Positions 1 through 895 of a DNA stretch of 37,543 bases are shown here, piece by piece; within the stretch, counting starts at the first letter, position 1, and the number at the start of each line of letters is the position of its first letter. The stretch is from Candidatus Wolfebacteria bacterium (lineage in GTDB: Bacteria > Patescibacteriota > Minisyncoccia > UBA6257 > UBA9933). The notes under the pieces were generated by a model. The model saw only the letters and a program-made list of their open reading frames with translations. It was not told the DNA's origin and ran no database searches. The stretch covers positions 1 through 37,543 of the forward strand of contig JAPLZW010000048.1 in assembly GCA_026394835.1 (NCBI GenBank), in the 5' to 3' direction. The position numbers and the translations under genes are program-made.

Positions 1-895
1 ATAAATCTCTTAACTGTTGATTTTCGCAGAAGCCGCCTGTTGCCGCGAATAACATACCCCAGAAAATCGATGCCCCGATCTATGGGAAAAATTTCGGCTT
101 TTTTCGGATGCATTTCGAGTTTTAATCTATCGCACAGAAAAATTTTTATGAGTTCTTTGACTTCGTGAAGGTGTTTTTTATCCAATCCTAAAATCAAAAA
201 ATCGTCCATATATCGGATATAATATTTTTCTTTCAGGATCCGCTTCACAAAGTGATCAAGTTCGTTCAAATATATATTAGCGAAAAGTTGCGAAGTAAGA
301 TTGCCTATGGGAATACCATACGGATTGCTTCTGATTATCTCGCGGAGCAACCATAAAATATCCTCGTCCGGAATTTTCCGGCAAAGCATTTCAAAAAGTA
401 TTTCGTGGTCTATATTATTGAAATATTTGGAAATATCGCACTTCAGGCAATAAATTTCGGGCGCGAGCTCTCTCTCTCTCTCTCTCTCTCTCTCTCTCTC
501 TCTCTCTCTCTCGACAACAAGCTCAAAGATTTTATGAAATTTTCAAGGCGGATTATCGCCCCATGCGTTCCCTTGCTCTTTCGGCAAGCATAGGAATCAT
601 ACACAAATCCCTTATCAAATATCGGCTCGATTATATTACATAAAGCGTGGTGTACCACGCGGTCGCGGAACGGCGCGGCCATGATGACACGCTTCTTGGA
701 ATCAATAACGACAAACTCGCGATAGCCGCCGTGTTTATATGTTTTATCCGATAATTCCCGCCGCAAGGCGAGCAAATTTTCTTCCAACTTATAGCCGAAT
801 TTCAAAATGGAACTGCGATAGCGTTTGCATTTTCTGGCGTCGAGATAAGCCTGATAAAGGTTTTGAAAATCAATGACTGAATTAAAATCACTCAT
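1..895 (-). CDS. DGR-type reverse transcriptase. The 3' end runs off the window. The frame is broken inside a (GA)22 tract: N-terminal ORF 443..895, remainder open in another frame across 1..470.
   Basis: The ORF 443..895 carries RT motifs FRDRVVHHAL and SYACRKSKGTHGAI. My translation of the minus strand of 1..470 has no stops: ELAPEIYCLKCDISKYFNNIDHEIL..GIPIGNLTSQLFANIYLNELD..YIRYMDDFLILG..HPKKAEIFPIDRGIDFLGYVIRGN. It contains the YMDD catalytic box and the IGxxxSQ motif characteristic of DGR RTs. It sits next to avd and a TR/VR pair. Confidence 0.9.
468..512. repeat. Perfect (CT)22C dinucleotide microsatellite, (GA)n on the coding strand, inside the RT gene
   Basis: Read directly: ctc at 468..470, then an uninterrupted tc run to 512. 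It encodes (Glu-Arg)n in every frame. The upstream and downstream RT frames differ by one nucleotide across it. Confidence 0.97.

Follow-up and report, generated by a model that had tools for sequence, protein, structure and literature searches.

A GA dinucleotide tract as a candidate reversible switch of the reverse transcriptase in diversity-generating retroelements of Candidatus Wolfebacteria and related Patescibacteria

The stretch analysed here (hereafter, the window) comprises the whole of contig JAPLZW010000048.1 (37,543 bp), which belongs to an NCBI metagenome-assembled genome labelled Candidatus Wolfebacteria, whose proteins include MCX6702630.1 and MCX6702639.1. It carries a diversity-generating retroelement (DGR), and the reverse transcriptase (RT) gene of this DGR is split into two reading frames by a (GA)22.5 microsatellite. 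We propose that the tract is probably a hypermutable dinucleotide contingency locus that acts as a reversible on/off switch of the DGR RT. The preliminary description of the window had read the tract as such a slipped-strand switch, and the relatives support this reading: the tract recurs in their RT genes, its length varies among them in even steps, the RT genes are under purifying selection, and the variable repeat (VR) of the DGR turns over in a lineage in which the tract toggles.

In the window, Tandem Repeats Finder detected a period-2 array of 22.5 copies at 468..512 with 100% matches and a score of 90, bearing out the perfect 45-nt CT tract described earlier inside the RT open reading frame (ORF). 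The array reads (CT)22+C on the plus strand and (GA)n on the coding minus strand, and homologous tracts were found at 64 other RT loci. Within the 37.5-kb window, no other dinucleotide run reaches five units and no long homopolymers were found; by estimate about 1e-20 perfect 45-nt dinucleotide runs are expected in 37.5 kb, which places the array far beyond chance. The tract encodes (Glu-Arg)n, hereafter (ER)n, in all frames, and its length sets the frame relation between the two RT halves. The N-terminal ORF (443..895, minus strand; 150 aa; codon starts congruent to 1 mod 3) runs from the fingers domain to SYACRKSKGTHGAI and the next helix, reads the tract as (ER)n and ends at a TGA stop at 445..443, 22 nt beyond the tract. 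The C-terminal frame (1..545, minus strand; codon starts congruent to 2 mod 3) overlaps the tract, contains no stop between 545 and position 1, and carries YCLKCDISKYF with the catalytic Asp, the DGR-specific motif IGNLTSQ, and YMDD. The coding of the tract in every frame, the two frames, the TGA stop and the stop-free downstream half were all as first described, and the window edge at which that half ends is the contig end, so the RT C-terminus is absent through assembly. The loop between the conserved RT halves is 71 nt long (mod 3 = 2), and 21 or 24 units would thus give a single RT ORF, in agreement with the earlier statement that removing one unit or adding two joins the halves. The window RT is thus not the uninterrupted ORF of a typical DGR, having a +2 offset at the tract and a C-terminus cut by the contig end. 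It contains what characterizes a simple sequence repeat (SSR) contingency locus, namely a pure intragenic repeat, (GA)22.5, with a unit that is not a multiple of 3.

Because protein databases favour intact ORFs, metagenome contigs were scanned with a frame-independent pattern, (GA)6 N{3,33} TGYYTNNARTGYGAYRT, that is, CLxCD[IV]. Among 76 matches, 63 (numbered, like the other loci below, with the prefix L) were RTs of a Patescibacteria clade with both halves present, from 53 datasets. Five further loci contained the C-terminal half only, at contig ends, and were excluded from scoring, and L090, L133, L134 and L145-L148, which had no tblastn match and no ORF, were rejected as chance low-complexity matches. 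A scan of GTDB genomes with the family alignment matched mostly distant, tract-free RTs (40-59% identity) through GIPIGNLTS and YxRYMDDF; among the GTDB matches listed, the sole close relative, L069, has the tract and is out of frame. A scan of viral contigs with the tract pattern gave 0 matches. The 63 metagenome RTs, L069 and the window form a set of 65 loci, in which the tract is 12-60 nt long (median 27) and uninterrupted in 64/65. The same tract, which the preliminary description had suggested seeking in related genomes, thus occupies the same loop of the RT across about 53 lineages.

The two RT halves were in frame in 17 of the 65 loci, offset by +1 in 20 and offset by +2 in 28. Dereplication at a flank identity of at least 95% left 53 lineages with 60 alleles, of which 14 (23%) were in frame and 46 out of frame, a share close to the expectation of 1/3 (binomial p = 0.13). 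Tracts of 15-24 nt were out of frame in 15 of 18 cases. Tracts of 12-14 nt were in frame in 5/7, which is a trend only, and since three of these five come from one lineage, no mutability threshold is claimed. As a control, tract-free DGR RTs were in frame across the loop in 79/79 cases among the GTDB matches listed. Two loci stand out. In L091 (4467-4727), about 250 nt of extra loop sequence lies upstream of the longest tract (60 nt), giving a whole loop of 320 nt. L092 (788-814) has a tract of in-frame length, yet a TGA in the RT frame stands directly ahead of it (..TTA TGA GAG..); the allele may be OFF by another route or may represent a miscall.

Seven groups of contigs from different samples shared flanks that were 99.9-100% identical, and five of these groups differed in tract length. 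In these five lineages, with 100% identical flanks of 557-800 nt, the tract differed by 2-14 nt, always by an even number. The tract was 13 nt in L087, L124 and L150 (L087 in frame) and 17 nt in L113 (out of frame); 21 nt in L082 and L132 and 25 nt in L118; 19, 23 and 31 nt in L114, L129 and L083, respectively, with L129 in frame; 40, 50 and 54 nt in L108, L095 and L121, respectively, with L095 in frame and L121 out of frame; and 28 nt in L140 (in frame) and 30 nt in L153 (out of frame). Comparison of whole contigs showed that the tract is the only difference among L082, L118 and L132 over 1,835 and 2,611 nt, that L140 and L153 differ by the tract and one single-nucleotide polymorphism (SNP) in 2,876 nt, and that L095 and L121 differ by the tract, 5 SNPs and 1 indel in 10.3 kb. 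Repeat number thus varies in unit steps among near-identical genomes of the relatives, and ON and OFF alleles of a gene under purifying selection coexist within a lineage, as known for contingency loci. Heterogeneity in repeat length, which the preliminary description had proposed to look for in reads over the window tract, was accordingly found in five lineages of relatives, while the window itself is represented by one assembled allele.

It is quite improbable that the split frame reflects a sequencing or assembly artefact in the window contig, with a true tract of 21 or 24 units and an intact RT. PCR stutter readily affects dinucleotide repeats, a tract of 45 nt is close to k-mer sizes in common use, and the length in the window rests on the assembly. 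However, an out-of-frame tract is the rule in the relatives, including the tracts of 15-24 nt mentioned above, which are far shorter than reads and k-mers, and the tract-free RTs are never frameshifted. Furthermore, the same lengths recur in independent assemblies, which argues against random assembly noise: a length of 29 nt is shared by L089 (JGI) and L152 (an ENA activated-sludge assembly), 26 nt by L123 and L139, 13 nt by L087, L124 and L150, and 21 nt by L082 and L132.

The locus is a complete chromosomal DGR, comprising the RT, a bAvd-like accessory variability determinant (Avd), a template repeat (TR) and a VR in a pilin-like target of the C-type lectin (CLec) type. The joined RT halves match Pfam RVT_1 at 1.3e-19 and contain the [I/L/V]GxxxSQ and YxDD motifs of DGR RTs, and the best match among solved structures is the Bordetella bRT (8ub7, 2.7e-75). 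The TR (1074..1190, minus strand; 117 nt) was found as direct repeat D2 and by TR/VR alignment, the latter of which also placed the VR (1641..1757, minus strand) at the 3' end of the target gene. All 21 mismatches in the TR/VR core fall at TR adenines (A>G 15, A>T 5, A>C 1), so that 21 of 29 TR adenine positions are substituted in the VR with zero non-adenine core changes, as is typical of DGRs. These adenine-only mismatches indicate that the window DGR has been used. The Avd gene (1249..1596, minus strand) encodes a four-helix bundle matching Pfam PF22296 at 1.6e-15, and its product MCX6702630.1 is annotated at NCBI as 'four helix bundle protein'. The target gene (1639..3090, minus strand) encodes 483 aa with a type IV pilin-like N-terminal methylation motif (Pfam N_methyl, 1.7e-5) and an FGE-sulfatase/CLec-type C-terminal domain (FGE-sulfatase, PF03781, 3.9e-6; 27.2 bits against a cutoff of 23.3) that contains the VR; both Pfam scores are above gathering. 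An Avd and a target with its VR in a C-terminal domain of the CLec/FGE type thus accompany the RT, as in other DGRs.

Decay of this DGR, with the RT a dead pseudogene and the tract incidental, is the least probable of the explanations considered and highly implausible, although the assembled RT is truncated after 150 aa and the DiGReF survey reports frameshifted DGR RTs, only as sporadic cases of inactivation (PMC3521204). Leaving aside the tract and the RT C-terminus lost at the contig end, the window DGR is free of decay in the parts present: the RT halves, as far as they are present, retain every catalytic motif and contain zero extra stops, Avd, TR and VR are intact, and the core shows no drift other than the 21/21 mismatches at adenines.

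The relatives point in the same direction. Among the complete out-of-frame alleles, 34/35 had no other stop in either half, and the median score against the family hidden Markov model (HMM) was 530 bits for out-of-frame and 550 bits for in-frame alleles (Mann-Whitney p = 0.23). NG86 dN/dS for pairs in which both alleles are out of frame was 0.086 for L093-L135 (dS 0.21), 0.14 for L135-L142, 0.15 for L098-L105 and 0.21 for L097-L138. By contrast, L156, the single decayed copy, has 4 stops and a dN/dS of 0.68. The additional lesions and relaxed selection of a decaying pseudogene are thus seen in L156 only, and, judged by these substitution patterns, the out-of-frame alleles are under purifying selection and are not pseudogenes. 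Where the flank suffices, out-of-frame RTs adjoin VR/TR pairs with only or mostly adenine mismatches (17/17 in L069, 12/12 in L091, 10/10 in L100, 14/14 in L103, 10/10 in L122 and 19/19 in L125). By this pattern, the DGRs at these loci appear to be still in use. Furthermore, L095 and L108, with identical RT flanks and tracts of 50 and 40 nt, respectively, differ otherwise only in 19 substitutions; these cluster at the target gene's 3' end, between 292 and 444, and 12 of the 19 lie within the detected VR (352-475). This clustering indicates that the VR is still turning over in a lineage in which the tract toggles. The preliminary description had named a dead pseudogene and an assembly artefact as the outcomes that would speak against a switch, and the out-of-frame lengths found across the family, together with the selection on both halves, make both unlikely for the family.

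The position of the tract in the RT protein was examined with the family profile, which aligns end to end with the Bordetella bRT (8ub7, E = 2.7e-75). The tract-encoded segment forms a 12-position insertion absent from bRT, and lies in a surface loop between the helix after the SYACRKGKGTH motif and the beta-strand with the catalytic Asp (YCLKCDISKYF). In the AlphaFold2 model of the in-frame homolog P0009 (mean pLDDT 86.8), the ER run is predicted as a low-confidence helix at 131-141 (block pLDDT 54-69) between a helix at 111-127 and a strand at 150-156. This model suggests that a charged insert of variable length in the RT loop is structurally plausible. The best 120 protein homologs share 59-80% identity and belong to Patescibacteria wherever the source names them, and many of them carry an in-frame (ER)n of differing lengths exactly in this loop. 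In the closest homolog, P0001 (80% identity), the loop is encoded by a pure 36-nt GA run. At the P0001 locus (L157, 2342-2972), an NTP_transf_2/HepT-like toxin-antitoxin pair was called between the target and the RT, and no Avd gene was called. The site of the (ER)n insert appears to be a permissive position at the junction of the RT fingers and palm and may serve engineering.

Considering these results, we propose the following scenario. Slipped-strand mispairing during replication would add or remove GA units and so generate the differences in tract length. Each 2-nt step would shift the downstream two-thirds of the RT through three frame states, one of which would yield a full-length RT with a variable (ER)n insert tolerated by the loop. 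As one state in three would be ON, populations would consist mostly of RT-OFF cells. The OFF majority, lacking RT activity, would freeze the current VR allele of the pilin-like target, and an ON minority, continuously regenerated and with an active (ER)n-containing RT, would carry out mutagenic retrohoming. The window allele would be OFF and one contraction, to 21 units, away from ON. Such switching may have been selected for rather than tolerated, and its adaptive value would lie in locking in a good VR allele while a diversifying minority is kept.

Several points weigh against this proposal. The window contig is known from one assembled allele, which is OFF and has a length of 22.5 units; exact-protein look-ups of its RT fragment, target and serine hydroxymethyltransferase (SHMT) in a contig index returned zero sister contigs. 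With the RT C-terminus lying beyond the contig end, the integrity of the window RT is only partly checkable. In the relatives, consensus contigs give the majority allele per sample only, and tracts of at least 50 nt could be mis-sized by assemblers that use short k-mers. The in-frame share of 23% is what a neutral, unselected tract would give, and does not by itself demonstrate an adaptive value. From sequence, moreover, we infer both the activity of RTs with up to about 17 ER loop residues and the silence of out-of-frame alleles, and (AG)n tracts were leaky in a reporter system (bioRxiv 10.64898/2026.04.01.715767), so 'OFF' may be leaky rather than absolute.

Alternatively, the frame in the genome may not decide expression, such that RNA polymerase slippage (deletions or insertions of 2 nt) or re-pairing of the tRNA by +/-2 nt on GAGAGA gives some RT from every allele, and tract length tunes a low RT level instead of switching it on and off. 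Transcriptional deletions of 2 nt are significantly associated with dinucleotide repeats in Escherichia coli (PMC5574713), and frameshifted mod1 (AG)n reporters of Mycoplasma bovis showed low, heterogeneous expression that rose with length up to (AG)24 (bioRxiv 10.64898/2026.04.01.715767). A 2-nt slip on a GA repeat should restore perfect codon-anticodon pairing, the window allele requires exactly a 2-nt deletion, and purifying selection despite 77% out-of-frame alleles would fit such recoding too. However, the loci lack the fixed, conserved offset and the slippery motif or stimulator of a programmed recoding site. No conserved slippery heptamer or stimulatory structure was found, the stop of the N-terminal frame varies from +1 to +120 nt relative to the tract, and in-frame, +1 and +2 alleles (17, 20 and 28 loci, respectively) all occur, even within one lineage, so that no single programmed event could serve all alleles. 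Leakiness would, in addition, complement and not replace the DNA-level switching seen directly between near-identical contigs. We thus regard tuning by recoding as an unlikely alternative to a reversible switch. Expression of a split RT by re-initiation was rejected: the interval from the tract to the YC motif contains no ATG, GTG or TTG in 44/48 out-of-frame alleles, and the same lineages also include in-frame alleles with a single ORF.

In 301 kb of tract-bearing loci, all other long simple repeats were also attached to the DGR. In L100, a (GA)15 at 7217-7246 lies in the leader of the pilin-like target, whose ATG and FTLIELL pilin body are in different frames; in L091, an (AG)8 at 1516-1531 lies in the target leader in frame; and in L069, a (GA)15 at 735-764 lies 18 nt upstream of the target ATG. 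These relatives thus have a GA repeat at the 5' end of the target gene in addition to the one in the RT, and the target itself may accordingly be phase-variable as well. Runs of G9-G10 occur in L119 (1873-1882), L123 (1528-1536) and L142 (819-827), directly upstream of DGR target ORFs of 1279-1348 aa ending in ..GFRCAR or similar. They are placed between a -35-like TTGCAT/TTGCGT and a -10-like TATACT with a spacer of 18-19 nt, an arrangement that resembles the spacer of a classical phase-variable promoter. At the window's own target gene, a simple repeat was looked for and none was found. Lastly, an in-frame G12 (TGCGGGGGGGGGGGGTCC) occupies the same loop in a more distant DGR RT (55% identity), that of L003 (MGIS01000024.1, Candidatus Wolfebacteria RIFCSPLOWO2_01_FULL_47_17b), after locus position ~3370; it may represent an SSR that arose there independently.

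These repeats bear on whether the tract has any function. A GA repeat could have arisen from an ancestral loop rich in Arg and Glu and, as insertions are tolerated there, have grown by slippage, in which case the frame breaks would be mildly deleterious accidents in a rarely needed system. The frame distribution, indistinguishable from a neutral 1/3, agrees with this, as do the mostly in-frame short tracts (12-14 nt) alongside longer ones that look randomized, and the variability of the loop and its absence from bRT. However, a pure tract has been kept across lineages with saturated dS, with all but one of the 65 tracts uninterrupted, and purifying selection on both halves is strong though most alleles are out of frame. 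The G12 homopolymer in the same loop of L003 and the confinement of other long SSRs to the target leader or promoter are also hard to reconcile with an incidental microsatellite, and a purely non-adaptive origin of the tract is therefore improbable. The long SSRs at target leaders and promoters suggest instead that SSRs have repeatedly been recruited to DGR control points. Whether second-order selection maintains them there as a two-tier evolvability circuit widespread in Patescibacteria is a question on which we find the case evenly balanced. If so, most cells would hold the diversifier OFF and the receptor frozen while rare ON cells explore sequence space, a stochastic regulator of DGR activity encoded in the DNA would be described for the first time, and surveys that need intact RT ORFs would have overlooked most elements of the clade.

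The remainder of the window contains housekeeping neighbours, including a class I aminoacyl-tRNA synthetase, a XerC/D-like integrase, SHMT, FtsK, ComEC and a P-type ATPase. The synthetase (8298..11894, minus strand; 1198 aa; tRNA-synt_1, Anticodon_1 and DUF5915) has a His_Phos_1 histidine-phosphatase domain (residues 523-693) inserted within its catalytic domain. Short A/T-rich arrays with a 7-nt period (for example, TTCTTTA, TCTTAAT and TCTTAAA) were found by Tandem Repeats Finder at no fewer than 10 places in the contig, several inside ORFs, including 8649-8847, 11072-11130, 14700-14744, 23082-23126 and 24675-24719.

Little is known, to our knowledge, about what restrains and times DGR mutagenesis. 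If retrohoming ran unchecked, any VR allele of use would be overwritten. A repeat prone to slippage within the RT would provide a restraint that needs no regulator, suiting the tiny genomes of Patescibacteria, and a heritable, reversible OFF state would lock in a successful variant while a steady trickle of ON cells persists. The tract also bears on how DGRs are catalogued. RT callers that need an intact ORF would miss or truncate the out-of-frame majority, and with about three-quarters of tract-bearing RT alleles out of frame and liable to be called truncated or pseudogenes, catalogues of DGRs in the Candidate Phyla Radiation (CPR) and calls of 'inactive DGR' are probably biased. Roux et al. 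(2021) classed DGRs as active or inactive from single-nucleotide variants in the VR (PMC8144416). The words frameshift and microsatellite are absent from that study and from a 2024 survey (PMC11661182). Full-text literature searches, the coverage of which was incomplete, returned no description of a repeat-gated DGR RT, and within that coverage the preliminary description's remark that no such example was known to it holds.

Among known systems, the bRT-Avd of Bordetella phage BPP-1 (8ub7) shares with the window DGR an RT with [ILV]GxxxSQ and YMDD, an Avd, adenine-specific TR/VR differences and a CLec-type target with a C-terminal VR, but bRT has no loop insert or repeat, as seen in the 12-position gap in the alignment, and no description of repeat-based on/off control of bRT at the DNA level was found in the literature searched. 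The DGRs of Patescibacteria (CPR) and DPANN, on which Paul et al. reportedly published in 2017, fall within the same clade of chromosomal DGRs; their targets are pilin-like or of the CLec type, and their hosts are uncultured organisms with small genomes. Reversible mutator switches are known in which tandem repeats or prophages turn mutL or mutS on and off. Like the proposed switch, they place a mutagenesis function under heritable, reversible control and confine mutators to a minority of cells; they act on genome-wide mismatch repair, whereas gating of a DGR would be confined to one variable region.

The closest parallel in mechanism comes from phase-variable Type III mod methyltransferase genes of phasevarions, such as mod1 (AG)n of M. 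bovis, in which an intragenic non-triplet repeat toggles the frame of an enzyme (PMC5909438; bioRxiv 10.64898/2026.04.01.715767). The likeness extends to the (AG)/(GA) dinucleotide, to hosts that are small-genome bacteria with few regulators, and to an enzyme the gating of which has population-wide effects. Unlike in the mod genes, the tract described here sits in the middle of the gene, within a structural loop, and gives rise to (ER)n in the product of ON alleles, and the hosts are uncultured environmental Patescibacteria, known here from sequence alone, and not host-adapted pathogens. The gated enzyme is, moreover, itself a DGR RT, so that one hypermutation device would control another. Gating of a DGR RT by an SSR contingency locus would thus represent a known switching principle applied to a new and conceptually interesting target.

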